64,000 nucleotides of DNA from an uncultured marine group III euryarchaeote. GTDB lineage: Archaea > Thermoplasmatota > Poseidoniia > MGIII > CG-Epi1. Position numbers and translations under genes: made by a program. The stretch spans positions 19,048-83,047 of the forward strand of contig CACALG010000001.1 in assembly GCA_902533295.1 (NCBI GenBank), read 5' to 3'. The notes beneath the pieces were generated by a model, which saw nothing but the letters and a program-made list of their open reading frames with translations, was not told the DNA's origin and made no database searches. Of the stretch, positions 1,317 through 48,706 are shown one piece after another; the stretch's first letter is position 1, and each line of letters opens with the position of its first letter.

Positions 1317-2185
1317 TCTTCGGCTAACTTTCTTAGTACGGCTATTTCTGGTTTCCACATATCAGGACCTCCTGGTGTTTCTAGGTATCCTGCTAAATGT
1401 TCTAGCCTTTTTTCCTGCATGAAACTCTTGAAAGTTTCTTTACCTAATTTTCCCATTCCAATATTATCATGTCTATCTACTCTAGATCCTAGTTCACTTT
1501 TTGAATCATTAAGGTGTAGAGCTACTAAATATTCCATTCCAACTATATCTTCAAAATCGTCCCAAATATTATCAAAATTATTTCTCCAATCATAACCAGA
1601 TGCCCACGCATGTTGTGTGTCTATGCATACACCAACCCTTTTCTTATCATCAATATGATCTATAATTTTCCTTATCTCTTCAAATTTAATACCCACATTA
1701 GTCCCTTGTCCTGCAGCATTTTCAATAACTAATTTTGATTCGTATCCTTTTGTTTCGTCTAGTGTTTTGTTCATATGGTGTGCTATTCTCTCAAGGGATT
1801 CATTTCTTGTTTGTTCATCATCCCTCATGCTTTTTTTTGGATGAGTATGTGAACCTGGGTGGAAATTTAGATAGGCAACACCTAAGGCCTCACAGCGATG
1901 ATATTCTTCTAGGAATGCAACTTGAGCTCTTTTTCCTTTGGCTTCATCTGGGCTTCCCATATTGATTAAGTAAGAATCATGGATCATTAGAGGCCCTAGA
2001 TCTGTTTTTGATAGAGGTTCTTTGAACCCCTTTATCTCCTCATCTGTGAGTGGTTTAGCAATCCATTGTCTTTGATTTTTACTGAACATTTGGAAAGTAT
2101 CAGCTTCTATTTCTAATGCCCAAGGTATTGCATTCTGCAGGCCTCCAGCAACACTTACGTGAGCTCCTAGTCTCATTATTTCCAA
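1313..2185 (-). CDS. nfo: Endonuclease IV (AP endonuclease family 2)
   Basis: Full-length match to the Nfo pattern: GAHVS, HPGSH, VIENAAGQG, CIDTQHAWASGYD, HLNDSK, DRHDNIG. Confidence 0.9.
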   Translation of the reverse strand: MEIMRLGAHVSVAGGLQNAIPWALEIEADTFQMFSKNQRQWIAKPLTDEEIKGFKEPLSKTDLGPLMIHDSYLINMGSPDEAKGKRAQVAFLEEYHRCEALGVAYLNFHPGSHTHPKKSMRDDEQTRNESLERIAHHMNKTLDETKGYESKLVIENAAGQGTNVGIKFEEIRKIIDHIDDKKRVGVCIDTQHAWASGYDWRNNFDNIWDDFEDIVGMEYLVALHLNDSKSELGSRVDRHDNIGMGKLGKETFKSFMQEKRLEHLAGYLETPGGPDMWKPEIAVLRKLAEE

Positions 2186-4527: not shown

Positions 4528-4604
4528 TGGGTCCGTGGTCTAGTTGGTTATGACGTCGCCTTGACATGGCGGAGATCCCCGGTTCGAATCCGGGCGGACC
4601 CACC
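4528..4604 (+). tRNA. tRNA-Val (anticodon GAC) with encoded CCA
   Basis: Cloverleaf by hand: acceptor GGGTCCG/CGGACCC, anticodon stem TCGCC/GGCGA, loop TTGACAT, T-arm CCCGG-TTCGAAT-CCGGG, discriminator A, CCA. Confidence 0.9.
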
Positions 4605-4606
4605 AC

Positions 4607-9239: not shown

Positions 9240-10707
<1,468 letters not shown>

Positions 10708-10989: not shown

Positions 10990-13900
10990 TTAAACCTTAA
11001 CTTGAAATTGTTGCCCAGGCTGTAATCCAGCAGGTATTGCAACAGTTACAACACGACCATCTGGTGCCTTAATTTGAATCTGCTGTCCTGGTTGTGCTCC
11101 AGCAGGTACTGCTACATTCAGAACGGTTCCTCCAGGAGCTGGTGCAGGCGGAGCTGCAGGTTCAGGGGCAGGTGGTTGTTCTGGAACTGGTGCAGGAGGT
11201 GCTGCTGCAGGTTCAGGGACTGGTGGTTGTTCTGGAACTGGTGCAGGAGGTGCTGCTGCAGGTTCAGGGACTGGTGGTTGTTCTGGAATTGGTGCAGGAG
11301 GTGCTGCTGGTGGTTGCTCAGTTATTGGAGGTGCAGCAGGCGGTTGTTCTGGTAATTCACCACCGAAAGCATCCAGTGAATCTCCAGAAGACTTAGATCT
11401 AGAATAGAAAAAGTATCCAGCTCCAGCTCCAACTAATACTACAGCTCCTGCCCCGGCTAAAACGATTGGATTAAATGATTCTGATGATCCTCCCCCTGTA
11501 ACTTCACTTTCTTTGAGTGTTCCTGAAACAGCTATTTTTACGATTTCAGAATCATCATTTAGAGCATCCTGTGGGCCCAATGCAGGTATTACACTATCTC
11601 TGTTAATTCTAACTTTTAGAGTTAGTTCACCATCATAAGGATCTGGTAATATATGTATTATTTGAACTTCAAGTGAACCAAAACCATCTATTGTAAAGTT
11701 TCCATCATTACCAGGATAAGTATCATCGTCCAAAGTGACTACAGAACCAAATTCTAACAATTCAAGAGTTCCACTAGCTGAAGCTCCCCCTTCGTTTGCC
11801 AAAAATATTTTTAGAGTAACCTCATCTCCTTCGCCAGCATTCATAGGAATTGCCATGAGACTTGTGATTGCGAGACTTGGTGGAGTGGAAATTTCCACTC
11901 TATTATTTGTATCAGAGAAAATAAGTTCCTCTGAATCCCAAAATTGCTCTCCACTATTTTTAGCATTGATATCTCTGATTGATAACTCAAATGTCCAGAA
12001 GCCTGTAAAATCAGAATTTCCACCAGATAGGAAAGAAACTGAAGGATAATTCTCATTAAAAGTGATTATTGTCTCTTCATTAGCAGGTAATTCTATGGAA
12101 CCATAACTGTCAACAATACCTGCAAAATTAACTTGGAGGTCTTTTCCAGATTTTGTAAGGCTAATTTCAGCATTTGCAGTTACATCAAAAGAACCTTCAT
12201 TCATTACATGGATTTTTGCATAAGCAATTGAACCATCACTAAATGAGACAAGTTCATTGCCATTCTCATCCTCCCAAACAATCTGAGTAACTATCAAATT
12301 AGGCAATTTTTTAATATCAATATCAACTTCTTCATCAAACAGTACACCTTCTTCAGAATCTTCTAACATTATATACAATTTTTCTACATTAGCAGTAGGT
12401 GTGATCTCTCCTTGGAAAGTTTTTGTCTCATCTACATCAACTTTTGTTTGAGGCTCAATAGTTATGATATTGTCTTCATCATCACTATCATCCCAATACA
12501 AAGTAGTTGTAATCTCTCCATATTTTTCACCATCATTCTCAATTTCTAAACTCCATGTATTCGCTATTCCTTCAACAAGCATATCTCCAAATTCAATATT
12601 GTAAGTAATATCGGGAGATGCAGATGAAACCAATATTGATTGTGAAACACTATCTTCGGCACCCTGACTACTGTCTTCTGGTAAAGAATCTACAATTTCT
12701 GCAGTTATTGTGTGTTCTCCCTCAGGTATATCTCTCCAGGTTGTAGTCACTGTTTTAGATTCCCCTCCTGTTACTCCATCTATATTAGCTGTAGCAATCA
12801 AATCCCCTCCATTTCTGAATTCTACGGTTACTCTTGCATCACCTTCCCCGTCATTTGATATGACTGCTGAAATAATTACATCATTACCTTCCACTAATTC
12901 TCCGGAAAATGATAGATCATCTATTGATAAATCTGCATCAGTAGTCAAGATATTTAGATCAGTAAGTTTTACTCTTCCAGGAGTTTCAGAATTTAATTTT
13001 AGTATTGCTTCAGCTTCCAAATCATCACTATTCTCTATCACTGCATTAAGTGCACTGACTAGCCCATTTGTACTGACGTGAATCACGGCATCATATTCAA
13101 TACTCAATTCACTAAAACCTACAGTACCTTTAGATGAACTACCCACAGTCATTACAATTTCAGTCATTTCTACACCATATTCATCAACAATAGTGTCACC
13201 ATTGTCTATTGCATCTTGTAATGCTTCTTGTAGGGCATTTTTCAAAGATTTTATTCCACCGGATTCACCCCATGTTTGCGGAGAATTTTCACTGTTTAAT
13301 TCACCAGCCCATTCCCAATCATTATTATTTGTAATTTTAATGTATGGATCCTCTGGGTAATCATCACTAAGAGTGCTTCTTACATAGATATTTTTGTCCG
13401 TATCCTCGCCACCAGAAATATCTGTTTCTTCAGTAAATGCAAAGTATGTTTTATCTCCAACTACCATATCCATGCGGTGATATTTTGCAACTAGTTGCTC
13501 ATTGTCATAATCAGTAATCTCGAAGCTGTCAGACCATGAACCTCCATCATCCTGGGTAAAAGCGAAATAGTAATCATACGAGCCTCCGGAAGCATATTGA
13601 TATGAAATATATGTAAAACCAGAACCACTAGCAATACTTGGTAATGCAAGCGTAGTACTAGTATCGGTATCTATTGCAATTGTAACATCGTTCCATGTTT
13701 CTCCATTGTCATTGGATACTGCCCAAACAATATCATAATCACTTGAACCATCTCCATCATAATCTCCACTGTCTACCCAAGCTACATACAATTTTGATCC
13801 TTCAGCACTAATAACGGGAGTATATGAGTAATAAGCAGTTGTTCCTTCATTTAAATAGACTAAATCAGCCCAGGAACTTCCATCAGTACTATATGTGTAA

Positions 13901-16197
13901 TACAAAGATTCACCATATGATGAATCACTCCAAACTAAATGGAATTTTCCTTCATTATATAATATTTCAGGCATATAATTTAGGCCAGTTGTGTCTCCAC
14001 TTACCAGGATAGCATCATCCCATGAGCCACCACCATTAGTTGAACTGACTGTGTAAATATCATATGTATACGTATTTGTCCATGAAGCAACAATATTATT
14101 ATCATCATCTGATGTAATAGTTAAACCATATTTTACTCCCGTGTTTCCACTATCTATTTTTTCAGGTGATGTCCAATCTTTACCATTATTTGTTGATTTT
14201 GTGTAGTAAATTGAGGATACACCAGTATATCCGTTATAATCTGTCCACGCCACATGTACATCATCTCCAGATGCAGTGATATCGGCTCTATATTGTAATG
14301 TTGTTGAAGAATAATCTAAATCTGTAGCATGATCATCATCAAAATTAGAGAGAACACTAAGTTCTTCCCATGATTCTCCACCATCATCCGATCTTGTGAA
14401 ATATACATCACCATCTCTTGTAGACTGATCACAACCGTTTGTGTCATCTTCCTGATCTAAATCACCATTATCAAGATAAACAAGATACAAATAATCATTA
14501 GAGTAAGCGATACTTGGACTACCAGAGTCTGCCTCATAATAATGTTCGGAAATATCCTCTATATCAGACCATGTAGAACCATCATTACTACTAACAGAAT
14601 AAACTATATCTTGGTCGTTTGAAGCACCACTTCCATCATATTCATCTGACCAAACTACAAGAACTTCATCAGAATTTGCAGTGATAGTGGGTGATGCTCT
14701 AAACTCATTCACATCGCCATTACTAATTCCGTCAACATTAACTGGTGAATTCCATGAACTTCCTGAATTCGCACTCCGTACAGACATTATTTTACGTGGA
14801 GAATTAATATCGTCGATATCCATCCATGTCATATAGAAATTATTGCTCCCATCATTGTCAGATCCTAAAAATGAAAAACTGGATCCATCTGCTGCTTGAA
14901 TCACATTTTCAGAACCAAAACTTGTGCCAGAATTAGATGATGTTTTAGATTTTATTGCATAACCATCTCCTGTAAGTTCAAGCCATCCAATAATAACATT
15001 AGATCCTTGTGCAGAAATTGTTGTTTCAGTGACAGTCTCATCTGAACTTATAGTGCCTGGCGAGCCAAAAGTTTCGCCTCCATCTGTAGAACGTGCATAT
15101 TCTGCTGCATAGTAAGATTGAGATTCATAGTATTGTTCCCAGCTGATGTGTACATTGTTTCCGCTAAGGGCTATTTGAGCACCAATACTACTTGAACTAT
15201 CTGCATCTGAAATTAATATTTCATCGTCCCAAGATTGCCCTAAATCATCTGATTTTTGATAATAGATGTGGTATTCATCATTACTACTCTCTTTGAGAGC
15301 AGACCAAACAATATGAATGGTCCCATCACTACTTACAGCTCCATCGTAATCATAGATAATGTAATGCGAACTACCTGGTTCTATTTGCTGTCCAGTAGAC
15401 CATGTTTCTCCCTCATCATCACTATAGGAAGCTTCAATGACTTCACCACCTGTGTCTGATATCCAGGCAATAACGGCATGATCATCATTTGCATGAATGA
15501 GAACATCGCTAAGAATAGCGCTTGTTTCAGCTCCATTTGTAGCAATAAGTACTATATCATCCCAATTACCATCATAATATCTAAACTTAACAGAATCAAT
15601 AGTTGTATCTCTATCGGTCAAGTCTCCATCATCAATCCATGCTACATAGTAATCATCATCTAGCATAGATACTACTGGTGCACTCGAAGTAGAACCGCCA
15701 TTTGTGCCTATTGAGGCTTTATTATAGTCATTTAATTCACCAGATCCATAAGGTAAACCAGTTATTTTGATAGAGGCCTCATTGATTGTAGTATTCGTAG
15801 GAAGATATAGTGATACCTCTTCTTCACCACTGCCTGCAAACCTTGCGGATGCACCTTTAGCATTACTAGAAAATTTTTCCTGATAGCCTAAAGCCCCATA
15901 TCCAGTTCCATCATATTTCCATTCGTAATTTTTAACACCTAATGATAACCCTTCAGGATATGAACCATCACTATCAGGCATACCTGAAAGGCCAATATTA
16001 GCTTCTAAAACTTCTGTAGCAGGAAATTTAACAGAAACACTAGAATCCTCATTTTCACCATCTAAAGTAACTGTCTTTTCATCACTGCCATTACCTTCTT
16101 TGTAATAGGTTGTTGAGGTTTCCCCAAATACAGATGAAGTACTACTGAGCAAGAGAAGTGTCACGGCGAAAGCCACGACTTTGTTTTCAAACATCAT
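10990..16197 (-). CDS. Giant surface protein (1735 aa): signal peptide, ~12 BNR/Asp-box repeats, CARDB-like Ig domains, one C-terminal TM helix, proline-rich cytoplasmic tail
   Basis: N-terminal AFAVTLLLLSSTSSVFG. There are twelve SxDxGxTW-type boxes (e.g. SDDEGETWS, SDDLGQSWD, SNDNGETWN). CARDB-like segments include ISNDGEGDARVTVEF and VMNEGSFDVTANAEI. The TM helix is IVLAGAGAVVLVGAGAGYFFY, followed by a PEQPP/PAAAPPAP tail. Confidence 0.8.
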   Translation of the reverse strand: MMFENKVVAFAVTLLLLSSTSSVFGETSTTYYKEGNGSDEKTVTLDGENEDSSVSVKFPATEVLEANIGLSGMPDSDGSYPEGLSLGVKNYEWKYDGTGYGALGYQEKFSSNAKGASARFAGSGEEEVSLYLPTNTTINEASIKITGLPYGSGELNDYNKASIGTNGGSTSSAPVVSMLDDDYYVAWIDDGDLTDRDTTIDSVKFRYYDGNWDDIVLIATNGAETSAILSDVLIHANDDHAVIAWISDTGGEVIEASYSDDEGETWSTGQQIEPGSSHYIIYDYDGAVSSDGTIHIVWSALKESSNDEYHIYYQKSDDLGQSWDDEILISDADSSSSIGAQIALSGNNVHISWEQYYESQSYYAAEYARSTDGGETFGSPGTISSDETVTETTISAQGSNVIIGWLELTGDGYAIKSKTSSNSGTSFGSENVIQAADGSSFSFLGSDNDGSNNFYMTWMDIDDINSPRKIMSVRSANSGSSWNSPVNVDGISNGDVNEFRASPTITANSDEVLVVWSDEYDGSGASNDQDIVYSVSSNDGSTWSDIEDISEHYYEADSGSPSIAYSNDYLYLVYLDNGDLDQEDDTNGCDQSTRDGDVYFTRSDDGGESWEELSVLSNFDDDHATDLDYSSTTLQYRADITASGDDVHVAWTDYNGYTGVSSIYYTKSTNNGKDWTSPEKIDSGNTGVKYGLTITSDDDNNIVASWTNTYTYDIYTVSSTNGGGSWDDAILVSGDTTGLNYMPEILYNEGKFHLVWSDSSYGESLYYTYSTDGSSWADLVYLNEGTTAYYSYTPVISAEGSKLYVAWVDSGDYDGDGSSDYDIVWAVSNDNGETWNDVTIAIDTDTSTTLALPSIASGSGFTYISYQYASGGSYDYYFAFTQDDGGSWSDSFEITDYDNEQLVAKYHRMDMVVGDKTYFAFTEETDISGGEDTDKNIYVRSTLSDDYPEDPYIKITNNNDWEWAGELNSENSPQTWGESGGIKSLKNALQEALQDAIDNGDTIVDEYGVEMTEIVMTVGSSSKGTVGFSELSIEYDAVIHVSTNGLVSALNAVIENSDDLEAEAILKLNSETPGRVKLTDLNILTTDADLSIDDLSFSGELVEGNDVIISAVISNDGEGDARVTVEFRNGGDLIATANIDGVTGGESKTVTTTWRDIPEGEHTITAEIVDSLPEDSSQGAEDSVSQSILVSSASPDITYNIEFGDMLVEGIANTWSLEIENDGEKYGEITTTLYWDDSDDEDNIITIEPQTKVDVDETKTFQGEITPTANVEKLYIMLEDSEEGVLFDEEVDIDIKKLPNLIVTQIVWEDENGNELVSFSDGSIAYAKIHVMNEGSFDVTANAEISLTKSGKDLQVNFAGIVDSYGSIELPANEETIITFNENYPSVSFLSGGNSDFTGFWTFELSIRDINAKNSGEQFWDSEELIFSDTNNRVEISTPPSLAITSLMAIPMNAGEGDEVTLKIFLANEGGASASGTLELLEFGSVVTLDDDTYPGNDGNFTIDGFGSLEVQIIHILPDPYDGELTLKVRINRDSVIPALGPQDALNDDSEIVKIAVSGTLKESEVTGGGSSESFNPIVLAGAGAVVLVGAGAGYFFYSRSKSSGDSLDAFGGELPEQPPAAPPITEQPPAAPPAPIPEQPPVPEPAAAPPAPVPEQPPVPEPAAAPPAPVPEQPPAPEPAAPPAPAPGGTVLNVAVPAGAQPGQQIQIKAPDGRVVTVAIPAGLQPGQQFQVKV
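11140..11320 (-). repeat. Tandem 51-bp (17-aa) coding repeat, about 3.5 copies
   Basis: The unit ctggtgcaggaggtgctgctgcaggttcagggactggtggttgttctggaa encodes PEQPPVPEPAAAPPAPV. Two copies are near-perfect and the flanking copies are degenerate. Confidence 0.85.
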
Positions 16198-16248: not shown

Positions 16249-16986
16249 ATGACTGAACAATACCACATGAATTCCCATGAAGGCACATATACTAGGGAAT
16301 TTGAGGCTAAAGTAGAGGCTACATTCCCAGGCATCATCGAACTAGATAAGACTGCATTCTATCCATTGGGAGGGGGCCAACCCTCAGATATTGGAACAAT
16401 AACTTGGAATGAAGGAGATGCAAATGTTACTGATGTGAGGAAAAAAAATCGAATTAGGCACATTGTAGAAGGAGATTTACCAGAAGTTGGAGATTCCATA
16501 AAAGGTAATCTTGACTGGTCACGAAGATATTCACATATGAGAATGCATACTTCTCAACATTTAGTTTCTGCTGTAGTGAATGAAATATATGGTTCAGATA
16601 CCGTAGGAAATCAGATAGGAAATGAGAAGTCTAGAATAGATTTTAAGCCTTTAAAAATAAACCAAACTGAGCTTAATGAAGTAGAGGACAAAGTCAATGA
16701 TTACATATCTAAAGACTTGAAAGTTACTATATCTGAGGAATTACGGTCCAATTTAGAAAATAATCCAGATATCCGTTCAAGTATGTCTAGTGGTCTTTGG
16801 AAAATGTTACCGAAAAGTGTTACAGAATTAAGAGTAATAACCATAGGTGATATCGATGTTTGTCCATGCGCAGGCACTCATGTAAAAAGCTTAAAGGAAA
16901 TAGGTAATGTTTCTTTTATTAAAAGAGATAATAAGGGTTCTGAAAAATTAAGATTAACATATAATCTAGGCGATATCGACTCTTGA
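16249..16986 (+). CDS. alaX: AlaX-type Ala-tRNA editing protein (tRNA synthetase second additional domain)
   Basis: The zinc/editing motifs HTSQHLVS (HxxxH) and CPCAGTHV (CxxxH) sit at the spacing expected for free-standing AlaX. Confidence 0.8.
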   Translation: MTEQYHMNSHEGTYTREFEAKVEATFPGIIELDKTAFYPLGGGQPSDIGTITWNEGDANVTDVRKKNRIRHIVEGDLPEVGDSIKGNLDWSRRYSHMRMHTSQHLVSAVVNEIYGSDTVGNQIGNEKSRIDFKPLKINQTELNEVEDKVNDYISKDLKVTISEELRSNLENNPDIRSSMSSGLWKMLPKSVTELRVITIGDIDVCPCAGTHVKSLKEIGNVSFIKRDNKGSEKLRLTYNLGDIDS

Positions 16987-19900
16987 ATTTGTAAGGCCCT
17001 CTCTGTCCTTTTGTTCATACATCATTTTAATTTCTACAGAAGTTGCAGCATTACTTTTTTGTTGCATTTTTAGTTTAAATTGTACTTCGTTATATGAAGA
17101 TATATCACCCACAATAAACGAGTTATCTGAGAATGAATAATATACATCTGGATCTATACCTACTAATCCTAAGATGCTACTATTGAATTCTGGACTTATT
17201 TTACAACTACTAATAGTTTCAGATGAATAATTACTGAGATTTACGTTCAAAGTTATATTTGTACCGAGTTTTTCGTATGATGATGTAATAACAATTTCTT
17301 TTTCAGTGAAGTAATTGTCAACCATTTCTCTTGTAGATGCAATTGTTTCATCAATTATTGGGTTCAGATAAATTTTTACCTGCTTTACACTCTCGGCATC
17401 TCCATTCCAATTTGCTAGGGTTGGATTAATTGTTTCTATAGCTCTAACGGCATTAATCAGCTTCCCTTTGAACATATTATCTATTTCTCCATAAATTACA
17501 GCAGCAAGATAGGAATGTTCTCCTCTCTGTAGAATGATTTTATTATTACCATAGTCTATGGAACCCAGATCTCCTTCAGTTTGAAATGAGTCTTGAACAA
17601 AATCATTGATTGCTGTGAGCATCCCGCTCATGATATCTGTATCAGTTTTAACTTCAACAGCACTAACATTTCTAAGAAGCCTTCCATCTTTGTAAATTAA
17701 ATATAATTCTTCAACTTTATACTTAGCAATAGGTTTTGATTCAATAATAGATACATTTTCATCTAATTCTTCTTTCCTAGATCGGTATAGTAAAACACCA
17801 CCAAACATTAAGAAAAGAAGACTTATACCTATAGTAGCAGGTAAAATTTCTTTCATTCCAAATTGATCAGTTTCTGTACCTGAGGAACTATATAATTTGA
17901 CTACTTCTTCCATACTTACTGTTTCATTATTAGAATTGCTAATGTGACCGAATTCATCTTCTATTGTGATTCTATAAAAATAATCTCTGTCTGGACTTGG
18001 ATTCTTATGAATCCATTCATAATAACCTTGTTTACAGGAAGTTTCCATACCAACTCCTATTATTTCTTGTGTGAACCATCCACTATCTGAAGCAGGTAAT
18101 TCATCAGCTACCATTTGTACTTTACAAATAGCGGCATCTTCAGGAATAACAAAACCTAAAACCAATTCTGTAGCATTAGTATGCGATATTGCAACATTTG
18201 TAGCTTTCTGAGGGTCCTCTGTAAATACTTCAAAAGTTAAATGAACTCCTGAATAATCAATTTTTATGTTGTTATTACCTGTAATATCCTCAGTTGGTAC
18301 AAAACCTCCATTTGAAGTTCCACCAAATTGAATAGTCTTATTGATTATATCTAAATAATATTCATCTACTAACAATTTATTTTTGTTCATTCCTCTAACT
18401 AATGCTTTTTCATATATTCCATCTAAATCATTATCTACACTAACATTAAACCAATGGATATCATTAATTGCTGGAATATATTTCAAATTGAAACTTTGAT
18501 CATATTGCCCATTGGAACTGAAATATTCAGTAGTATCTAGTGGATTCTCAAGATTGCCTGCAAGATCACGACTTTCAGCATACAGGAAATATCGTGTATT
18601 ATCTTGCAAGTCCTGTAATTTAATTTTATCATCAGAGATATCATGAGGTAATAAATACCAAGTTAATAGATCATTACCTTTCTCTATAGTCTGTATTGCA
18701 ATATATATCTTATAATCTAGATTTAGATTATCTGTATCTATGAAGATTTCTAGATAATCATATCCCCATTTTTGAGGTACATTTGAGAAAGAAATGGTAT
18801 CTACTTTCGATGCATAATTCATTATTATATCATATTCTTCTTTATCCTCACTATTTCCGGCATAATCACTAGCCAGAATTTTAAATGCATAATGACCTAA
18901 TTCATCAAATTCATAAATATAGTGCGTGTCTCCATAAATATTTATTGAATCCAGAGCTGTCCAAGTAACTGAATTAGGATCTAAATTAGCATTTGTAAAA
19001 TTAGAATAGGAAACCTCTAGAGTATTATACGCAATATCATCTGCACTATTCTTCCACGATAAATCTATTTGACTATTGCCTATGAAATAATAATCCTCTT
19101 CAAAATTCAAAAGTTCGGTGGAAGGTATGGATGTATCAATCTTAACTTGATACTCGTAATTATTCTTATTCTCTGTGTTTCCATAAATATCTCTAGCTAA
19201 TGATCTAAACCGATATTCCTTACCATCTTCGCCAGTAAACAATACAATTGATTCTGTAAACGTGCCATATTCTTCCCATTGGGCAAATTTATCATTTACT
19301 ATATACTCAATAATATATTCTTTGAAATCATTATCATCATTCAAAAGAGATATTTGTAACTCAATAGATTCTGAATTAATTAATCCAGTTCCGGGAATTA
19401 TCTCTGATTGTGGTGATGTTGTATCCAATAATGCTAAAAGTGTGTGATTATAGGATAAATTTTTGTATATTTCTACCATAATGTCATTATTATAATAAAT
19501 AATTCTTATGGGATTATAATTAATTTCATTTTGATCGGCAGCTTTGCTAATTACATTTATCATATAATAATCGGAAAAACCATAGTTATCAGTTTGTGAA
19601 TCAACCAGTTTACTTCCAAAAGAATTTTCGATATCAAAACCATGCTCTCTTGAACCAGTGCCCCGCTCATCAGCTATATTAATTTGCAAATTGTAGCGGA
19701 TCAAATAATCAGTATCACGACAATTAAAATCATTGTTTTGTAAAGTAGAATCACTGTCAATTAAGTCCAAACAAAAATCTCCTTCTGAGAATATATTATT
19801 ATCTATTGATATAGTACTATTAAATGAATAAATAGCTTTTTCAAAATCGTTAAAGACATTGTTTAAAATATTTATATCTGATCTATAAGAGCTTACTGAT

Positions 19901-22128
19901 TGTGTATTATTCGTTAATATATTATTTGAAATTCTTCCTTCACTATTATTTGCAGTTATAGCTATTTCCGAAAAATTAATAATATTGTCTTCTAAGTCAA
20001 AATCTGCAAGAACGACAGTTATAGATTCTCTAAAATTCGTTATTATATTATCACTAACTTCGACTTCACCTTCCTGCGAAAAAATACCTACTGCAGCAAC
20101 TTTTTGTAAATAAAGAACATCACATCTATCATGTGTGCATAATCCGGTTACATTATTATTAACTATTTTACTATATGTCCTGTTACTAAGAATACCATAA
20201 TCATTTACATGCAATATATTATCTTCAATAAGTATAGGAAACGTACTATCCTCAAATCCTCCTACTTCGATACCCACTGCCGAACTTAATGTATTATTTT
20301 TAATTATAGTTTTTGGAATATAATATGCATAAATTCCTGATAATTGTGATTCAGGACTCATGTTTGTTTGAACTGTATTATTTGCAATATATCCTTCTTC
20401 AACATCTCTGAACATTATGCCAGCACCATCGATAGAATGAACAAGATTATTTGTTACATGTATATTATCAATTGTAAATGCTGAACCAAACTGAGTATAT
20501 GCAGATATTCCATTATATTTTATATTTTTGAGTGTGTTATTAGCGACAATACCATTTGATATGTCGCCAAAACCATTATCATATATCCAAATTCCTATAG
20601 ACGCATTATCAATATAATTATCCACTATAGTAAAATTTTTGTAGAAATTCCAAACCGTTATTGCTCTTGCTGATGTATTAGTAATATAATTTGAAATTAT
20701 ATGATTATCAGTTCCTACATCATTATATACATTTTCAAAATCAAGCGCTATTGGAAAGTCATTATCATTGATGGTATTATTTATTATATAATTTCCAGAA
20801 GGTGATATACCTCCTTCAGGCCAACCCCAAAGTCCTATAGCTTGCCATCCTATTTCAAAATTATTATTTCTTATAGTATTATTGTTCTGAAATGAATTAA
20901 TAAAAATAGCAATTGTGTAATTTTCAAAGTAATTATTTTCGATTAAATGACCTCCACCATAATATTCATCTGTATCAAAATCCCAGAACCAGAAAATCAT
21001 ACAACTATGCCCCCAATAGGGTTGTTTAGACCCGCAATTTATGAATGTATTATTACTGTATTCATTTCTATTTCCTGCACGATCCATAAGATTGTGCCAA
21101 TATACGCCAGAAACATTGAATATGTTGCGGCTAATTATATTGTCATCTGTAGCTTGTAGAGACATATCATGTATTGTATTATTTAGAAATTGGTTATCAA
21201 TTATTGTATGATTACTGCCTTGAGTTATAGTAAGCGTACCTCTGCCTCCCTGTCCATTATCCTTGTAAATATAATCTCTAAAGATGTTACCACTAATTAG
21301 ATTATAATTCCCATAGGAAATAGTTACACCTAATGTACCGTTAATGAAAGTATTATTTTGTATTAAGGCGTTCTCTCCTGAGACAAACAAGTCATAGAAT
21401 ATGTAACTATTATAAATCGTGTTATTAATAAATCTAAAATTATCAGTATAAGCACTAATTATTCCAATCATATCAAATGTGGAATTAGTTATGTAAGATC
21501 CAGCTCCAGTAAATCTTAATGCCTTTACATACTCAAAATCAGAATTCTCAATAATTACCCTAGTATTAGGAATTCCTGAGCCTGGCTGATTATTTACTAA
21601 TCTGCCTACTTGAACAGTATAATCTAACCTCTCTGTGTAATTCCCTTTACCAATTATATTAGATTTAATAACGGAACGATCATTACTAGTTGTCGGATTC
21701 AAATCATAATCTGTAACAATTAGTACAGAATTCTCATTTAAATCAAGACAATTAGCAGTTATTTCACTATTCTTTTGAATAGAATCAAGTATTAATTCAG
21801 AATTAATTATGGTCAGTGTACTGTATAATGATATATTGTCACCATGTGAATCTTGTTCATGAAATACTGTAGAATTAATCCATCTGGTTTCTCCTCTAAT
21901 TTCAATGAAACCTTTTGATGATAGAGAAACGTTTTCAAGTTTCAAAGTCTTACCAAAATTAACGACAATATCTTTGACTGAGACGTCCTCATCCCAAACA
22001 TGCGTGTCTTGAGTGATAATCCAATCCTGACCCTCTTGGGGTGCATTTCCATTTGAACCTGCTGAAGCATTTCCAGTACTGATTACTATCGCAGTAATTG
22101 CGATTAAAAGAAATGCTGTTTTCTTCAT
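16966..22128 (-). CDS. Giant surface protein (1720 aa): signal peptide, Asn-rich right-handed beta-helix (PbH1-like) repeats, Ig/Fn3-like region, one TM helix, cytoplasmic roadblock-like domain plus a beta-rich C-terminal domain
   Basis: N-terminal AFLLIAITAIVISTGNASA. Hundreds of residues carry periodic NNT/NN.I/GI.. beta-helix signatures (e.g. IQNNTFINGTLGVTISYGNYNLISGNIF). The TM helix is ILPATIGISLLFLMFGGVLLY (about 17785-17847), followed by a 270-aa tail. Confidence 0.75.
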   Translation of the reverse strand: MKKTAFLLIAITAIVISTGNASAGSNGNAPQEGQDWIITQDTHVWDEDVSVKDIVVNFGKTLKLENVSLSSKGFIEIRGETRWINSTVFHEQDSHGDNISLYSTLTIINSELILDSIQKNSEITANCLDLNENSVLIVTDYDLNPTTSNDRSVIKSNIIGKGNYTERLDYTVQVGRLVNNQPGSGIPNTRVIIENSDFEYVKALRFTGAGSYITNSTFDMIGIISAYTDNFRFINNTIYNSYIFYDLFVSGENALIQNNTFINGTLGVTISYGNYNLISGNIFRDYIYKDNGQGGRGTLTITQGSNHTIIDNQFLNNTIHDMSLQATDDNIISRNIFNVSGVYWHNLMDRAGNRNEYSNNTFINCGSKQPYWGHSCMIFWFWDFDTDEYYGGGHLIENNYFENYTIAIFINSFQNNNTIRNNNFEIGWQAIGLWGWPEGGISPSGNYIINNTINDNDFPIALDFENVYNDVGTDNHIISNYITNTSARAITVWNFYKNFTIVDNYIDNASIGIWIYDNGFGDISNGIVANNTLKNIKYNGISAYTQFGSAFTIDNIHVTNNLVHSIDGAGIMFRDVEEGYIANNTVQTNMSPESQLSGIYAYYIPKTIIKNNTLSSAVGIEVGGFEDSTFPILIEDNILHVNDYGILSNRTYSKIVNNNVTGLCTHDRCDVLYLQKVAAVGIFSQEGEVEVSDNIITNFRESITVVLADFDLEDNIINFSEIAITANNSEGRISNNILTNNTQSVSSYRSDINILNNVFNDFEKAIYSFNSTISIDNNIFSEGDFCLDLIDSDSTLQNNDFNCRDTDYLIRYNLQINIADERGTGSREHGFDIENSFGSKLVDSQTDNYGFSDYYMINVISKAADQNEINYNPIRIIYYNNDIMVEIYKNLSYNHTLLALLDTTSPQSEIIPGTGLINSESIELQISLLNDDNDFKEYIIEYIVNDKFAQWEEYGTFTESIVLFTGEDGKEYRFRSLARDIYGNTENKNNYEYQVKIDTSIPSTELLNFEEDYYFIGNSQIDLSWKNSADDIAYNTLEVSYSNFTNANLDPNSVTWTALDSINIYGDTHYIYEFDELGHYAFKILASDYAGNSEDKEEYDIIMNYASKVDTISFSNVPQKWGYDYLEIFIDTDNLNLDYKIYIAIQTIEKGNDLLTWYLLPHDISDDKIKLQDLQDNTRYFLYAESRDLAGNLENPLDTTEYFSSNGQYDQSFNLKYIPAINDIHWFNVSVDNDLDGIYEKALVRGMNKNKLLVDEYYLDIINKTIQFGGTSNGGFVPTEDITGNNNIKIDYSGVHLTFEVFTEDPQKATNVAISHTNATELVLGFVIPEDAAICKVQMVADELPASDSGWFTQEIIGVGMETSCKQGYYEWIHKNPSPDRDYFYRITIEDEFGHISNSNNETVSMEEVVKLYSSSGTETDQFGMKEILPATIGISLLFLMFGGVLLYRSRKEELDENVSIIESKPIAKYKVEELYLIYKDGRLLRNVSAVEVKTDTDIMSGMLTAINDFVQDSFQTEGDLGSIDYGNNKIILQRGEHSYLAAVIYGEIDNMFKGKLINAVRAIETINPTLANWNGDAESVKQVKIYLNPIIDETIASTREMVDNYFTEKEIVITSSYEKLGTNITLNVNLSNYSSETISSCKISPEFNSSILGLVGIDPDVYYSFSDNSFIVGDISSYNEVQFKLKMQQKSNAATSVEIKMMYEQKDREGLTNSRVDIA

Positions 22129-23943: not shown

Positions 23944-24449
23944 TGCAAAAATATGCCCTAACTGGAACACCAGGAACGGGCAAAACCTCAGTATCTAAGC
24001 TATTAAATGAAAAGGTAATCTCTCTTTCAAATTATTATAAGAAAGCCTCAGAAGGGAAAACAAAAGATGGAGAATGGCTTGTAGATATTGGAAAATTAAA
24101 TCAGATTCTTGAAACTTCAAATTCAAATCTTTTTGAGGGAAATTTTGCTCACAAACTAGATAATATAGATAAGATAATCGTTCTAAGATGCGACCCGAAT
24201 ATACTAAAAAAAAGATTAGAGGAAAGAGGATACAACAAAGAAAAGGTAATGGAAAATATTGAGGCAGAAGCTATTGGTTTAATTTTCTCAGAATCAATAG
24301 ATTATGTAGGGAAAAATAATGTTATTCAATTAGACACAAGTAATACTGATGTTGAAAGTATATCAAATATTATAGGAAAATATTTGGACGGGAAGATTAA
24401 AGTAGAAGAAGAAATTGATTACTCAGAAAGAATATTGGATTGGTACTAA
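23943..24449 (+). CDS. Fap7/AK6-like nucleoside-triphosphatase (putative adenylate kinase)
   Basis: N-terminal P-loop LTGTPGTGKTS, ~170 aa, with the overall pattern of archaeal COG1936-type kinases. Confidence 0.65.
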   Translation: MQKYALTGTPGTGKTSVSKLLNEKVISLSNYYKKASEGKTKDGEWLVDIGKLNQILETSNSNLFEGNFAHKLDNIDKIIVLRCDPNILKKRLEERGYNKEKVMENIEAEAIGLIFSESIDYVGKNNVIQLDTSNTDVESISNIIGKYLDGKIKVEEEIDYSERILDWY

Positions 24450-24450
24450 G

Positions 24451-25053
24451 ATGGTAGCTGACGATTACAGAGATTTTGGAACAAAATTACTTGATCCTAT
24501 AGCAGAAAAAATACCTCTTGGGCCAATGGGAATAAGTTTTTTATCGTTATTAACTGCAATTGGTGCAGGATATTCCTTTTTTATTATAGAAGATAATTTG
24601 TCAAATAAAGAATGGTTACTAATTGGTTCTGGACTCGTATTTCTAACAGCTGTTCTCGATGCACTTGATGGTATAGTTGCACGAAAAAGAAACTTATCTA
24701 GTAAGAGAGGAGACTTGGTAGATCATACACTTGATAGAGTTGCAGACATTCTAATTATTGGAGGTATTGCTTTTGGAGCCCTTGTAAATATCGAAATTGG
24801 TTTTGCTGCGATTATTGGAATTCTAATGTTATCTTATATGGGAACACAAGCTCAAGCAGTGGGGGCTGGCAGAGAATATGCAGGTTTACTTGGTAGAGCA
24901 GACAGATTAATCGTACTGATGCTCATTCCAATATTTCATTACTTTAATCAAGAATATAATTATATGGAGTTAATGTGCTATGCATTTGCAATTATTTGTA
25001 CATTATCTGCCATTTATCGGTTTCAAAAAATCTGGATTGAATTAGAAGAATAG
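24451..25053 (+). CDS. CDP-alcohol phosphatidyltransferase family protein (archaeal polar-lipid head-group synthase)
   Basis: DALDGIVARKRNLSSKRGDLVDHTLDRVAD fits D-x2-DG-x2-AR-x8-G-x3-D-x3-D, and the protein is polytopic. The start is taken at ATG 24451, just after the upstream stop; the ORF track begins at 24415. Confidence 0.8.
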   Translation: MVADDYRDFGTKLLDPIAEKIPLGPMGISFLSLLTAIGAGYSFFIIEDNLSNKEWLLIGSGLVFLTAVLDALDGIVARKRNLSSKRGDLVDHTLDRVADILIIGGIAFGALVNIEIGFAAIIGILMLSYMGTQAQAVGAGREYAGLLGRADRLIVLMLIPIFHYFNQEYNYMELMCYAFAIICTLSAIYRFQKIWIELEE

Positions 25054-25225
25054 TGGTGGGAGCACTGGGATTTGAACCCAGATCGGCGGGTCTCACCTAT
25101 TGAGCCGGAGCCCATAGTTTGCACAGGTCATAGCTCCAATCATTCATCACGACATCAGCAGACCCTGTAGCAATCATTCCTGTATAATTGGAGCCCGCAA
25201 TGCTGCCAGGTTACACCATGCTCCC
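25054..25225 (-). tRNA. tRNA-Trp (anticodon CCA) with a 96-nt intron at the canonical 37/38 position; CCA encoded
   Basis: The 5' exon is GGGAGCAUGGUGUAACCUGGCAGCAUUGCGGGCUCCAA (25225-25188). The intron spans 25187-25092. The 3' exon is ACCCGCCGAUCUGGGUUCAAAUCCCAGUGCUCCCACCA (25091-25054). The spliced product folds into a standard cloverleaf with anticodon loop CUCCAAA. Confidence 0.88.
25123..25183 (-). ncRNA. Box C/D guide RNA embedded in the tRNA-Trp intron
   Basis: RNA order is ACAGG (terminal stem), AAUGAUUG (C-like), 12-nt guide CUACAGGGUCUG, CUGA (D'), UGUC, GUGAUGA (C'), 12-nt guide AUGAUUGGAGCU, AUGA (D-like), CCUGU (terminal stem). By the 5th-nucleotide rule the guides pair with the tRNA so that C39 and C34 are targeted. 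Confidence 0.7.
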
Positions 25226-25307
25226 CAATATAGGCTGATTAGAACACTACAATAAAAAGTCTCTGATGAGTAACGTTAATAACGTATGCTTTATCGAGTA
25301 TACATAA

Positions 25308-25745
25308 ATGAGCTCAGATGAAGAAACCGAAGAGGAGGTTTTGAATGAGCACAATCCTGCACCTCCTACTGAAAGAATTTGGATGCCCGTTTATCAGGAT
25401 GAAGATAAAAAACTAGCTAAACATGATTGGTGTTTAGATACTGGAATTATTAAGAATCTTAGTGGAGAAGAAGCAAAGCCTAAAGGTTTCTATGTTTCAG
25501 TTCTAAACAAAATGAAATACATTCTGGAACATGATTTAGGACACAGTAGAGGTGCTCCAAAATTTCCAGCTTCACAAATTAAACTAATTATAAAAGATTT
25601 AGATAATATAGATGGCTTCTATGATAAATGGTGGAGAACTGAATCTTCTCAATTGGAAGCCTTTATTCGTGTAGTTCAAAATAGAAGGGCTGACTTATCA
25701 CAAAGATTTATTATAGATTCGGTAACGAGGACTCTACGTGGTTGA
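25308..25745 (+). CDS. Hypothetical protein (145 aa) with an acidic N-terminus
   Basis: ORF only; its end overlaps the GTG start of rpe by 8 nt. Confidence 0.45.
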   Translation: MSSDEETEEEVLNEHNPAPPTERIWMPVYQDEDKKLAKHDWCLDTGIIKNLSGEEAKPKGFYVSVLNKMKYILEHDLGHSRGAPKFPASQIKLIIKDLDNIDGFYDKWWRTESSQLEAFIRVVQNRRADLSQRFIIDSVTRTLRG

Positions 25746-38511: not shown

Positions 38512-39864
38512 ATGGGCAGTTTTTGCGAACACATGGACCCAGTAAGTGTGCTTGACTACAGATACGGCACAGAGCAAATGAGAACTATATTTCGTGCTAA
38601 TTCATATTTACAAGCATTACTGGAAGTAGAAGCGACACTTGCCGAAGTACAAGAAGAGAAAGATATAATTCCTAAAGGAACCTCTTCCCAAATCCGTAAT
38701 GGAATCAGTGCAGTAAAACGTGAAAGAGTAGAAGAAATAGAATCTCAAATAAATCATGATGTCATGGCTGTTGTCAAAGCTCTCGAAGAACAATCTGGTG
38801 ATGCAGGGAAATGGATTCATTTTGGAGCAACCAGTTATGATATAGTAGATACTGCAAGAGCTTTACAGCATAAAAGTGCTATTACGTTATTGGAAGTTGC
38901 AATTGATAAATTAATAAATTCTTTAGCTCATTTAGCAAAAGAACATAAAAAAACAGTTATGTTAGGCAGAACACATGGCCAATGGGCAACACCAATTACT
39001 TTCGGCCTAAAAATGGCTGTTTTTACATCTGAACTGAAGAGACACAGAGATAGACTTATTGAATTAAAACCTAGAATATTAACAGGGAAATTTCTGGGTG
39101 CTGTAGGTTCTGGAGCTGCAATGGCACCACATACTCTAGAAGTTCAAAGTGCTATTTGCAAAAAATTAAGTCTCAATGAACCATTAGCTACAACACAAAT
39201 ACTCGGTCGAGATCGAATTGCAGAGTTGATAGCTTGGGGTTCTAATCTAGCAGTAAGTTTAGAAAAATTCACTACAGAAGTACGTAACCTACAAAGAAGT
39301 GATATTGGTGAAGTAGCTGAAGCCTTTGATCGTGAAAAACAGGTTGGATCTTCTACTATGGCTCAAAAAAAGAACCCAATTACATCTGAGAATATTGGCG
39401 GATTAGCAAGAGTTGTTAGATCTATGCTCTATACTTCTTATGAGAATAATTTGCAGTGGCATGAAAGGGATTTAGCCAATTCCAGTGCAGAGAGAATAAT
39501 TTTGCCTCAATTCTACATATTATTAGAATATATTTTAGTCAAATCTGACAATGTTTTCTCAAACCTCTATGTTAATAAAAAAAGGATGAAAGAAAATCTA
39601 GACAATGCTGGTGGTTTACCTATGGCAGAGGCTTTTGTTATCGCACTAGGAAAAACAGATTTAGGAAGACAAGAAGCCCATGAACTCGTCAGAACTATCA
39701 CAATGGAAGCTGAGAAGTCAAATATATCATTTTCTCAAGCAATAGAAGAGAATAAAGAAGTTTTAAATTATTTAAATCAGAAAGAAATAAGTTATTGTTT
39801 AGATCCTCAAAATTACACGGGCCACTCTGAAGAAATCATTGACAAAGTTTTGGGTTCATTATAA
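38512..39864 (+). CDS. purB: Adenylosuccinate lyase
   Basis: Fumarate-lyase signature GSSTMAQKKNP and a full-length PurB pattern. The start could be ATG 38512 or ATG 38533; the ORF track begins at TTG 38485. Confidence 0.9.
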   Translation: MGSFCEHMDPVSVLDYRYGTEQMRTIFRANSYLQALLEVEATLAEVQEEKDIIPKGTSSQIRNGISAVKRERVEEIESQINHDVMAVVKALEEQSGDAGKWIHFGATSYDIVDTARALQHKSAITLLEVAIDKLINSLAHLAKEHKKTVMLGRTHGQWATPITFGLKMAVFTSELKRHRDRLIELKPRILTGKFLGAVGSGAAMAPHTLEVQSAICKKLSLNEPLATTQILGRDRIAELIAWGSNLAVSLEKFTTEVRNLQRSDIGEVAEAFDREKQVGSSTMAQKKNPITSENIGGLARVVRSMLYTSYENNLQWHERDLANSSAERIILPQFYILLEYILVKSDNVFSNLYVNKKRMKENLDNAGGLPMAEAFVIALGKTDLGRQEAHELVRTITMEAEKSNISFSQAIEENKEVLNYLNQKEISYCLDPQNYTGHSEEIIDKVLGSL

Positions 39865-40304
39865 TGCAAGGATTTGCAATAAGCAATTTAACGAATAAGA
39901 ATCTTAAACAAAAAGCAAACAAAATTGTACTTGATTTAGTCAAAAAAGGGCTAAAAGTAAAATACAAAATCTTTGGGAAATATATATATTTAGAATCAAA
40001 AAATGAAATAACTCAAAAAAATTTGAATAAAAATATCTATCATGCAAAAATGAGCACAGATAAAAAAGATGAGATTTTCACATCTATAAGTGGGTTAATA
40101 GACGGTACAAAAGAACCTGCAGATTTTGCAGTAAGAGTCAATCGAAAAGGTGAACATAAATACACTTCAACTGAATTAGCTAAAGAAGTAGCCGGGGCTG
40201 CATTTGAAGAATGGCCAAATATTAAAGTAAATCTAGACAAACCCTCATTAGAAATTAATATTCAAATTATTAATAATCGGAGTATTATATACTTAAGAAA
40301 CTAA
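39864..40304 (+). CDS. Small THUMP-domain RNA-binding protein (tentative)
   Basis: The C-terminal half (FAVRVNRKGEHKYTSTELAKEVAGA ... LEINIQI) resembles THUMP domains. Its start overlaps the purB stop (ATAATG). Confidence 0.5.
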   Translation: MQGFAISNLTNKNLKQKANKIVLDLVKKGLKVKYKIFGKYIYLESKNEITQKNLNKNIYHAKMSTDKKDEIFTSISGLIDGTKEPADFAVRVNRKGEHKYTSTELAKEVAGAAFEEWPNIKVNLDKPSLEINIQIINNRSIIYLRN

Positions 40305-47972: not shown

Positions 47973-48706
47973 CCTACAAAACCACCGATAAGGGCATATT
48001 AATTACAGACGAAAGATTAGCTGCACAAATATACAATAAAGGAAAAACAGGAACTACCCAGGAAAAAGGTAACCTGTTATTAAGGCCTGAAGAAGCATTA
48101 TATTGCGATTATCGAGGTGATTTTGAGCTTTCAGATAACGAGAGAAAGAAATTCATGTCAAATAATTATACAGTTTACAGAGATCTAAAAGAACGTGGTT
48201 TAATAGTAAAAATTGATGATTTTGGCCTAAGAGTTTATGACCGAAAAACTGAAACTAAAGGACAAGCATCTGCAATTGTTTTGCCTAAAAATTTCGACGA
48301 AAAAATAGATTTTAGCAATATTTTTAATGAACTGGAAAAGGGACTTGAGAGAAGAGTCCAAATTGGAATAATAGATTCTGACAATGATGTAGTATATTAT
48401 GTGATTAAAGGCATCAAATGGGATGAAACTAAACTAAAAGAAGGTCAAAAAAGTACAATTACAGACAAGGAAGTTCAAGAACTACTCGAGAAAGGATACC
48501 AAATAAATTCTGGATTAAAATTTGGAACACATTACAGAGTCTACAACTATGAGTCAAATCATGCCCCTTGGCTAATACACGTCATAAAAGAAGGAATTAA
48601 TTGGTTAGATATTGCAAGAATGGTACGTGTAGGTCATGGTGTCAATAAGACAATAGTTTTAGCATACAAACAGAAATGGCTTAGTATTGAATGGATTAAA
48701 CCTTGA
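47969..48706 (+). CDS. endA: tRNA-splicing endonuclease EndA (two-unit, alpha2-like); start codon unresolved
   Basis: Catalytic unit SGLKFGTHYRVY...HAPWLIHV...RVGHGVNKT, preceded by a degenerate first unit (FGLRVYDRK...IIDSDNDVVYYVIKG). The conserved N-terminal domain (GILITDERLAAQIYNKG...LLLRPEEALYCDYRG) is encoded upstream of the first ATG (48155), in a frame open from 47960. Confidence 0.8.
   Translation: MTYKTTDKGILITDERLAAQIYNKGKTGTTQEKGNLLLRPEEALYCDYRGDFELSDNERKKFMSNNYTVYRDLKERGLIVKIDDFGLRVYDRKTETKGQASAIVLPKNFDEKIDFSNIFNELEKGLERRVQIGIIDSDNDVVYYVIKGIKWDETKLKEGQKSTITDKEVQELLEKGYQINSGLKFGTHYRVYNYESNHAPWLIHVIKEGINWLDIARMVRVGHGVNKTIVLAYKQKWLSIEWIKP

Follow-up and report, generated by a model that had tools for sequence, protein, structure and literature searches.

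A tRNA-Trp intron of an uncultured Marine Group III archaeon is probably a box C/D guide RNA for C34 and C39 of its own tRNA

Introduction

In Haloferax volcanii and other Euryarchaeota a box C/D RNA sits within the tRNA-Trp gene's intron, where it selects C34 and U39 of the same tRNA and acts either in trans on the precursor or as the excised circular intron (PMC4090602, PMC7994747, PMC11408192, PMC3326292). Self-guiding introns of this kind have been known since 2000-2001 (Omer 2000; Clouet d'Orval 2001; Singh 2004, summarised in PMC4090602, PMC11408192, PMC3326292), and Haloferax survives without its tRNA-Trp intron (PMC4090602). Here we describe a tRNA-Trp(CCA) gene with a 96-nt intron in a 64,000-nt stretch (hereafter the window) of contig CACALG010000001.1 from an uncultured Marine Group III (MGIII) euryarchaeote. 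We consider it likely, by analogy with Haloferax volcanii, that this intron is a box C/D guide RNA for C34 and C39 of its own tRNA. The window has a G+C content of about 35% and carries an archaeal 16S rRNA gene; its SRP54 protein is 85-92% identical to marine-metagenome proteins, some of which are labelled Marine Group III euryarchaeote or Thermoplasmatota.

The locus resembles that of Haloferax volcanii in that an intron interrupts tRNA-Trp(CCA) at position 37/38 and has the complete layout of a C/D-C'/D' guide, with the guide adjoining D directed at C34, the guide adjoining D' directed at position 39, and pairing across the exon-intron junctions. It differs from the Haloferax intron in being 96 nt rather than 105 nt long, in having C rather than U at position 39 and, in so far as the latter is known here from descriptions, in its boxes AUGAUUG/AUGA and its D' duplex of only 6 bp. 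With members of the Rfam family RF01133 from Archaeoglobi and Methanomicrobiales the intron shares the antisense elements GGGUCUG-CUGA and UUGGAGC, the order of the boxes, the 12-nt spacers and the K-loop, whereas those copies have canonical RUGAUGA/CUGA boxes and score 61-66 bits, as opposed to 24.8 bits for the window copy. Moreover, the intron of Archaeoglobi is only about 61-64 nt long, and its C/D terminal stem doubles as the outer helix of the bulge-helix-bulge (BHB) splicing motif, whereas in the window the two are set apart by a 31-nt 3' extension that includes a hairpin.

Marine Group II (MGII; Poseidoniales), the sister lineage, shares A37, an intron that starts with UU, a long 3' extension and non-consensus terminal boxes (L024, L026 and others; fetched sequences are given L numbers). 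The MGII boxes, however, are AUGACGA/CCGA, with C.C in place of U.U; guide 1 reads GGGUUUG there and is matched by an intron end ..GAA, a compensating change relative to MGIII; and the MGII D' duplex is 9-10 bp long in an intron of 110-111 nt. The tRNA-Trp intron of Sulfolobus solfataricus likewise has non-consensus boxes yet retains complementarity to positions 34 and 39, and its circular form is stable (Danan 2012, PMC3326292); no recognisable C/D boxes were reported for it (PMC3326292), whereas the window intron has all kink-turn-critical nucleotides. Five traits distinguish the window copy: its compensating boxes, C39, the short D' duplex, the 31-nt tail between the C/D stem and the BHB, and a sub-threshold Rfam score. 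We found no paper describing the tRNA-Trp introns of MGII or MGIII in open-access text. The present copies would extend the self-guiding tRNA-Trp intron to uncultured marine Poseidoniia (MGII and MGIII), and they leave the known mechanism unchanged.

The intron has the layout of a box C/D RNA

With default settings ARAGORN missed the tRNA-Trp gene at 25225..25054, and so did the Rfam tRNA model at the gathering threshold. When introns were allowed, ARAGORN reported tRNA-Trp(cca) with a 96-nt intron (output i(37,96)). Because the default ARAGORN and Rfam settings miss both the tRNA-Trp and the guide, genome bins of these archaea may wrongly seem to be without tRNA-Trp. The gene has a 7-bp acceptor stem, D and T arms, an anticodon stem GCGGG/CCCGC and a 96-nt insertion after A37, and it is made up as follows.

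25054..25225, minus strand: tRNA-Trp(CCA) gene with intron, 172 nt, CCA encoded (ARAGORN with introns allowed)
25188..25225, minus strand: 5' exon, tRNA positions 1-37, its 3' end being the anticodon-loop CUCCAA (direct sequence reading)
25092..25187, minus strand: intron, 96 nt, at the canonical 37/38 position (ARAGORN and intronless orthologue)
25054..25091, minus strand: 3' exon, positions 38-76, starting ACCCGC and including the encoded CCA (direct sequence reading)

The initial annotation of this DNA, made from the letters alone, had placed a 96-nt intron at 25092-25187 of a tRNA-Trp gene, and we find the same coordinates, on the minus strand. ARAGORN draws the intron ('gctcc-Intron-agacc') 2 nt upstream of 37/38, which implies G37. 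When A37 is joined to A38, the resulting 76-nt tRNA is again called tRNA-Trp by ARAGORN; it is identical at 70/76 positions to an intronless tRNA-Trp (L003) and has the identical anticodon loop, CUCCAAA. Since the intronless syntenic orthologue (L003, L124) has the loop CUCCAAA, the canonical 37/38 placement is correct, and the annotated intron position stands although ARAGORN is 2 nt off.

Read 5' to 3' as RNA, the intron consists of UUAU, ACAGG, A, AUGAUUG, CUACAGGGUCUG, CUGA, UGUC, GUGAUGA, AUGAUUGGAGCU, AUGA, CCUGU and a 31-nt tail, GCAAACUAUGGGCUCCGGCUCAAUAGGUGAG. Its elements are given below, where the 72 copies are those of MGIII.

25179..25183, minus strand: terminal stem, 5' strand ACAGG (pairs with CCUGU at 25127-25123; invariant in 72 copies)
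25171..25177, minus strand: box C variant AUGAUUG (consensus RUGAUGA; kink-turn U and GA retained)
25159..25170, minus strand: D' guide, 12 nt, CUACAGGGUCUG (direct reading; family covariation)
25155..25158, minus strand: box D' CUGA (canonical, invariant)
25151..25154, minus strand: K-loop spacer UGUC, 4 nt (UAUC in relatives; one of two common polymorphic sites of the C/D core)
25144..25150, minus strand: box C' GUGAUGA (canonical, invariant in 72 copies)
25132..25143, minus strand: D guide, 12 nt, AUGAUUGGAGCU (direct reading; own target at 25184-25195; covariation)
25128..25131, minus strand: box D variant AUGA (consensus CUGA; A1 can face U6 of box C)
25123..25127, minus strand: terminal stem, 3' strand CCUGU (direct reading; invariant)
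25098..25122, minus strand: variable linker and small conserved hairpin, ..GGGC UCCG GCUC.. (MGIII alignment)
25092..25097, minus strand: GGUG (3' strand of the BHB central helix, pairing with C32-C35 with one U.U mismatch), then AG (3' bulge, also target of the D' guide)

Our reading confirms the complete arrangement of an archaeal box C/D RNA in this intron, and the terminal stem ACAGG/CCUGU, the C box, the D' box CUGA, the C' box GUGAUGA and the D-like AUGA were all found where the initial annotation had put them. Direct reading also bears out its claim that both guides are 12 nt long (spacers 25170-25159 and 25143-25132); the rule for archaeal C/D guide spacers is about 12 nt, with guide positions 3-11 as the core pairing region (PMC7229835). 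The D guide forms 12/12 pairs (two of them G.U) with G30-A37 and the first four nucleotides of the intron, and the fifth nucleotide upstream of D, a G, faces C34. Thus, the proposal that this guide faces C34 was right, but the pairing had been drawn too short, as seven pairs with GCUCCAA rather than over all 12 nt. The D' guide pairs over 6 bp only (positions 2-7; UCUGGG) with AG and ACCC on the two sides of the 3' splice site, its partners being the last two intron nucleotides and A38-C41. The fifth nucleotide upstream of D', again a G, faces C39, and so the register suggested for this guide on AGACCC across the 3' splice junction is upheld. Because both guide duplexes cross a splice junction, the intron-containing precursor would be the better substrate.

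Two short sequences are repeated within the intron, and both repeats are specific to MGIII. The 9-nt GAAUGAUUG occurs at 25179-25171 (box C and the two preceding nucleotides) and again at 25145-25137 (end of C' and start of the D guide), whereas UACAGG occurs at 25184-25179 (terminal stem) and at 25169-25164 (inside the D' guide). Through the GAAUGAUUG copy, box C has the same sequence as the first part of the D guide and is therefore likewise able to pair with the 5' splice junction. Beyond the tRNA of the intron itself we found no alternative target of either guide in the window (16S rRNA included), match counts being near chance. A loose regular-expression scan of the window for further box C/D RNAs gave chance matches within coding regions only.

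Guides and targets covary among related introns

In an Rfam E-value scan of the 501-nt region 24900-25400, the intron matched RF01133 (sR3, C/D box) with 24.8 bits (E = 2.6e-4), in an alignment that takes in the two antisense elements as well as C'; the same scan gave a weaker match to RF01297. RF01133 scores 66.3 bits in Archaeoglobus, 64.6 bits in Methanospirillum stamsii, 61.3 bits in Methanomicrobium mobile and 32.7 bits in an MGII copy, in each case inside a tRNA-Trp intron, and RF01133 proves to be a tRNA-Trp intron guide family. The shortfall in the score of the window copy sits in the variant boxes and in the 5' halves of the guides. Homology of the window intron to the RF01133 introns is supported by its being the same intron of the same tRNA with shared guides and, judged by these sequence features, it is a divergent member of the known guide family.

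One genome per species was scanned for a pattern that combines both antisense elements with C', and at least 119 loci matched. The lineages among the matches listed are Archaeoglobi, Hadarchaeia, Methanomicrobiales and Poseidoniia (MGII and MGIII), and every parsable match among those listed lies inside a tRNA-Trp intron; a metagenome scan found the same architecture in 81 loci. Such recurrence, together with the E-value of the RF01133 match, shows that the resemblance is no accident. For a test of covariation, target and guide were concatenated in 50 distinct sequences and the proposed pairs were counted, both as aligned and after the partners had been slid by 1-3 columns, with 500 shuffles for comparison. 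In the true register 82.8% of the cells pair, as opposed to 28-50% with partners slid by one to three columns. Moreover, eight guide-target pairs change on both sides, a number that none of the 500 shuffles reached.

The informative columns are those that lie outside the fixed search pattern. At intron nucleotide 1 and D-guide position 9, 30 sequences have C-G and 19 have U-A; at intron nucleotide 3 and D-guide position 11, 48 have G-C and 2, those of MGIII, have A-U; and at the final nucleotide of the intron and D'-guide position 3, 45 have G-C and 2, those of MGII, have A-U. Further columns of this kind are intron nucleotide 2 with D-guide position 10 and, for the 5' half of the D' guide, tRNA positions 42-46. 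These sequence comparisons argue that guide-target complementarity is maintained by compensation; its loss in related genomes had been named at the outset as the result that would speak against a guide, and we find it retained over the 50 distinct sequences as well as within MGIII.

Of note, C'/D' and the two antisense elements are retained in the Hadarchaeia introns (57-60 nt; L009, L011, L016, L019, L044, L062, L104 and others), which leave no space for a terminal box C and show GUGC at the place of box D. Some of these tRNA-Trp genes carry extra insertions, in the D-arm region (L019, L104) or in the T arm (L009, L037, L097). Two sequences, L028 (Bathyarchaeota JdFR-04) and L030 (Nitrososphaeria SKW303), have a tRNA-Trp of the Archaeoglobi type and are probably on mis-binned contigs.

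The variant boxes probably form a compensated kink-turn

In the register of the box C/D kink-turn, read from the end of the helix towards the inside, G3 and A4 of box C form sheared pairs with A4 and G3 of box D, U5 faces U2, and G6 pairs with C1. Both the flipped-out U and the G.A pairs are essential features of the motif (PMC1865073). As drawn for the window, the kink-turn comprises the ACAGG/CCUGU stem, a 3-nt bulge AAU that ends in U, the pairs G.A and A.G, then U.U, then U-A in place of G-C, and G.U. The positions of the sheared G.A pairs and the flipped-out U are therefore intact in sequence. Because the deviations of box C and box D face each other, with U-A standing for G-C, they would compensate.

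This pairing of variants is consistent over all fetched copies: AUGAUUG occurs with AUGA in 76 copies (76/76), RUGAUGA with CUGA in 60, and AUGACGA with CCGA (MGII, C.C for U.U) in 23, and there are no mixed combinations of box C and box D. (Each box variant represents one evolutionary event, and the coupling is supportive, no statistical proof.) These findings suggest that the kink-turn is probably preserved despite the variant boxes. The initial annotation had called the C and D boxes degenerate, which is apt in the sense that they are off consensus, but not in the sense of decay, given that they are a fixed and mutually compensating pair. The variants of MGIII (U-A for G-C) and MGII (C.C for U.U) can be viewed as lineage-fixed natural kink-turn variants, and as such they are small tests of the tolerance of L7Ae. 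The 23/23 MGII copies with AUGACGA/CCGA come from L024, L026, L036, L038, L051, L103, L108 and L118 and from metagenome sequences such as L137 and L147.

The guide core is conserved in Marine Group III and probably lost in a related lineage

The genome and metagenome scans together yielded 72 complete MGIII-type genes, which represent 57 flanking contexts and 23 distinct sequences. Only two common polymorphisms are present in the 61-nt C/D core, at nucleotide 2 of the K-loop spacer (G/A) and at the guide position 1 that adjoins box D (U/A). Neither the K-loop spacer nor guide position 1 is expected to be constrained by the C/D ribonucleoprotein (RNP). Four more sites vary, each in single sequences; two of the changes there, A to G opposite U and A to U opposite G42, leave the pairing intact or strengthen it. 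The 7-nt linker that follows the terminal stem, on the other hand, varies at nearly every position, the stem of the tail hairpin has A-U exchanged for G.U, with 11 sequences of either kind, and the flanks of the MGIII genes are unalignable right up to the gene ends, with the exception of an upstream block considered below. A near-invariant core next to a free linker and free flanks argues for selection on the guide RNA rather than recent common descent, and thus the sequence comparison indicates that the C/D core is under strong purifying selection in MGIII.

Not all relatives have the intron. In a lineage whose SRP54 is 71-72% identical to that of the window, and which includes a contig of MGIII CG-Bathy1, the tRNA-Trp gene at the syntenic position is intronless.

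L003 8044-8119, L004 7790-7865 and L124 8044-8119, minus strand: intronless tRNA-Trp of a related MGIII lineage, in syntenic position

The gene order is kept in that lineage (SRP54, DUF5611, AAA_18, CDP-alcohol phosphatidyltransferase, tRNA-Trp, ribulose-phosphate epimerase). Because the intron is common to MGII and MGIII, down to A37 and the UU start, the simpler reading is that the CG-Bathy1-type lineage has lost it. A more distant relative, L125, has no tRNA at the syntenic site. (Note that the CG-Bathy1 assembly also holds intron-containing copies, L136, L150, L169 and L201; because contigs with such copies are present too, the bin is probably composite.) A few copies from metagenomes look decayed as well. 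L174 and L202 are MGII-like, with the D guide CUGGAAC and box D replaced by CCAA or CAGA, and a 16-nt deletion has cost L135 its D guide and box D. A further sequence, L014, is without a recognisable 5' exon. Loss and decay fit the published dispensability of the intron in Haloferax (PMC4090602).

Splicing of the intron

A BHB of the 3-4-3 type can be drawn at the splice sites. It is formed by the anticodon stem, a 3' bulge A-G-A38, a central helix of C32-G, U33.U, C34-G and C35-G, a 5' bulge A36-A37-U, and an outer helix UAU/AUA. The initial annotation had described this motif (CUCC/GGUG with a U-U mismatch and a 3-bp outer helix) as imperfect. We agree with the structure, but it is no peculiarity of this copy: a central helix with one mismatch and an outer helix of 2-4 bp are the norm of the family, and four clean pairs are found only in Methanomicrobiales and a few other copies. 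In RNAfold, which ignores proteins, the unconstrained minimum of the precursor is -63.6 kcal/mol, with box C paired with the 5' junction; a fold with the D guide paired in cis with its target reaches -62.8 kcal/mol, and the BHB-constrained fold -57.6 kcal/mol. These modelled energies fit a precursor that would refold between use of the guide and cleavage.

The window also encodes the enzyme that is expected to excise the intron.

48155..48706, plus strand: tRNA-splicing endonuclease EndA, 183 aa (PF01974, 1.5e-25; TIGR00324, 66.7 bits against a cut-off of 59.6; PDB EndA structures)

The length of this EndA (183 aa) fits a single-unit subunit. An open reading frame (ORF) at 48703-49416, which overlaps the EndA stop codon, is without a family match.

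Discussion

The initial annotation had proposed that the intron encodes a C/D guide for positions 34 and 39, as in Haloferax and other Euryarchaeota, and homology to RF01133, covariation and purifying selection all support that proposal. Taking Haloferax volcanii as the model, we infer the following course for RNP assembly, methylation and circularisation and for the order of these events. The precursor would be transcribed from a TATA-like promoter, and L7Ae would bind both the terminal kink-turn (AUGAUUG/AUGA next to ACAGG/CCUGU) and the internal C'/D' K-loop, after which Nop5 and fibrillarin would assemble on the intron RNA. The D guide, paired with G30-A37 and the first four intron nucleotides, would direct 2'-O-methylation of C34, and the D' guide, paired with the last two intron nucleotides and A38-C41, that of C39, either in cis or between two precursor molecules. 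The RNA would then refold into a relaxed BHB and be cut there by the EndA encoded in the window, the exons would be ligated, and the excised intron would probably last as a circular guide RNA.

Several observations weigh against this reading. Two positions of box C and one of box D depart from the consensus, and the RF01133 score of 24.8 bits lies below the gathering threshold of 41 bits. The BHB has a U.U mismatch in its central helix and an outer helix of just 3 bp, and the BHB-constrained fold is not the minimum-energy fold. Pfam scans of 49 ORFs within the 64-kb window revealed no fibrillarin, Nop5 or L7Ae. (A tblastn search of the 209 fetched sequences with approximate Methanocaldococcus fibrillarin and L7Ae sequences matched, with fibrillarin, only an Archaeoglobales locus.) The D' duplex of MGIII is, with its 6 bp, the shortest in the alignment of 50 distinct sequences, and MGIII is the only lineage there without a pair at D'-guide position 8 (A versus G42); C39 methylation may thus be inefficient or lost in MGIII. 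Finally, the existence of the intronless MGIII lineage, together with the dispensability of the intron in Haloferax, means that guide function is not essential.

The short D' duplex is the basis of the alternative that survives best, namely that the D guide alone works, on C34, and that the D' element is a relic without C39 function in MGIII. Consistent with this idea, the D' guide pairs at positions 2-7 only, as compared with a published core pairing region of positions 3-11 (PMC7229835), all other lineages pair at position 8 and mostly further, and CUACA, the guide's 5' half, is not complementary to G42-A46 and repeats UACAGG of the terminal stem instead. However, GGGUCUG, D' and C' are invariant in the 72 copies, position 5 still faces C39 inside six consecutive Watson-Crick pairs (three of them G-C), and a reaction that is intramolecular or takes place in a precursor dimer may need fewer pairs. 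Note that a symmetric RNP would require C'/D' in any case, and its conservation therefore does not by itself tell the two readings apart. We regard a guide that acts on C34 only as possible but unlikely.

We put forward with considerable doubt a further idea, which concerns how the terminal kink-turn of MGIII arose. Duplication of GAAUGAUUG might have made box C equal to the first 7 nt of the D guide, with a C-to-A change in box D then restoring the pairing. Since box C can pair with C35-A37 and intron nucleotides 1-4, the competing folds (box C on the junction, guide on the junction, BHB) would constitute a lineage-specific switch that orders RNP assembly, methylation and splicing. If so, loss of C39 guide function might accompany the switch.

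Could the intron be a mere spliced spacer, with boxes that no longer bind L7Ae and complementarities that are leftovers? The off-consensus C and D boxes and the score below the Rfam threshold would be expected from such a decayed guide, truly decayed copies exist elsewhere (L174, L202, L135), a related lineage has probably lost the intron, and Sulfolobus has a tRNA-Trp intron without consensus boxes (PMC3326292). Yet the core is near-invariant over 57 genomic contexts while the adjoining linker and the flanks vary, the nucleotides for the sheared G.A pairs and the flipped-out U remain in place, neither deviating box is found without the other and together they would re-create a Watson-Crick pair, and both spacers are exactly 12 nt. 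Decay is therefore highly improbable.

We give even less credence to the notion that the antisense elements are chiefly an RNA chaperone or switch, there for pre-tRNA folding or the ordering of splicing and not for methylation. In its favour, the BHB fold (-57.6 kcal/mol) is predicted to be less stable than both the unconstrained minimum (-63.6 kcal/mol) and the fold in which guide 2 pairs in cis with the anticodon loop (-62.8 kcal/mol), and Hadarchaeia retain both antisense elements without terminal C/D boxes. But exact 12-nt spacing and a register that sets the fifth nucleotide on C34 and C39 are needed by a methylation guide, not by a folding helper, and methylation by the homologous Haloferax intron has been demonstrated experimentally (PMC4090602, PMC11408192). 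Lastly, an intron two nucleotides further upstream, after C35, with a mature loop CUCCAGA and G37, would accord with the ARAGORN output i(37,96) and with the G37 of many other lineages, but ARAGORN does not model the BHB, a BHB centred there would have to melt the anticodon stem, and the intronless orthologue at the syntenic site has CUCCAAA, so we rejected this placement as scarcely credible.

Promoter, neighbouring genes and other features of the window

The one alignable part of the MGIII flanks lies upstream of the tRNA gene.

25251..25283, minus strand: upstream block with TTTTTATT at its end, 26 nt ahead of the 5' end of the tRNA (conserved in 16/16 aligned MGIII copies)

This block reads GTTATTAAC.TTA.TCATCA.AGACTTTTTATT and is kept in all aligned MGIII copies, whereas the 25-nt interval up to the tRNA is variable. 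The block probably represents a BRE/TATA promoter, possibly shared with a divergent 145-aa ORF at 25308. On the other side, the convergent CDP-alcohol phosphatidyltransferase gene (24415-25053, plus strand) abuts the CCA end of the tRNA with its stop codon (25053/25054), leaving no spacer. The 3' neighbour of tRNA-Trp differs among other MGIII genomes; in L001, for example, a gene with a PKD domain is inserted.

Elsewhere in the window, the 16S rRNA gene is complete (9240-10707, minus strand) and there is no 23S rRNA anywhere in the 64 kb, which argues that the rRNA genes are unlinked. A tRNA-Val(GAC) gene is located at 4529-4605 (plus strand). Two genes bear on tRNA modification: one for a Taw2/Trm5-like methyltransferase (474-1358, minus strand), which matches PF02475 and scores below the NCBIfam equivalog cut-offs, and one for a 146-aa THUMP-domain protein (39864-40304, plus strand). 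Two very large ORFs on the minus strand encode 1735 aa (10990-16197) and 1720 aa (16966-22128). The L001 homologue of the 1720-aa ORF matches beta-helix/NosD families, and the neighbouring large ORFs of relatives differ in content and length.

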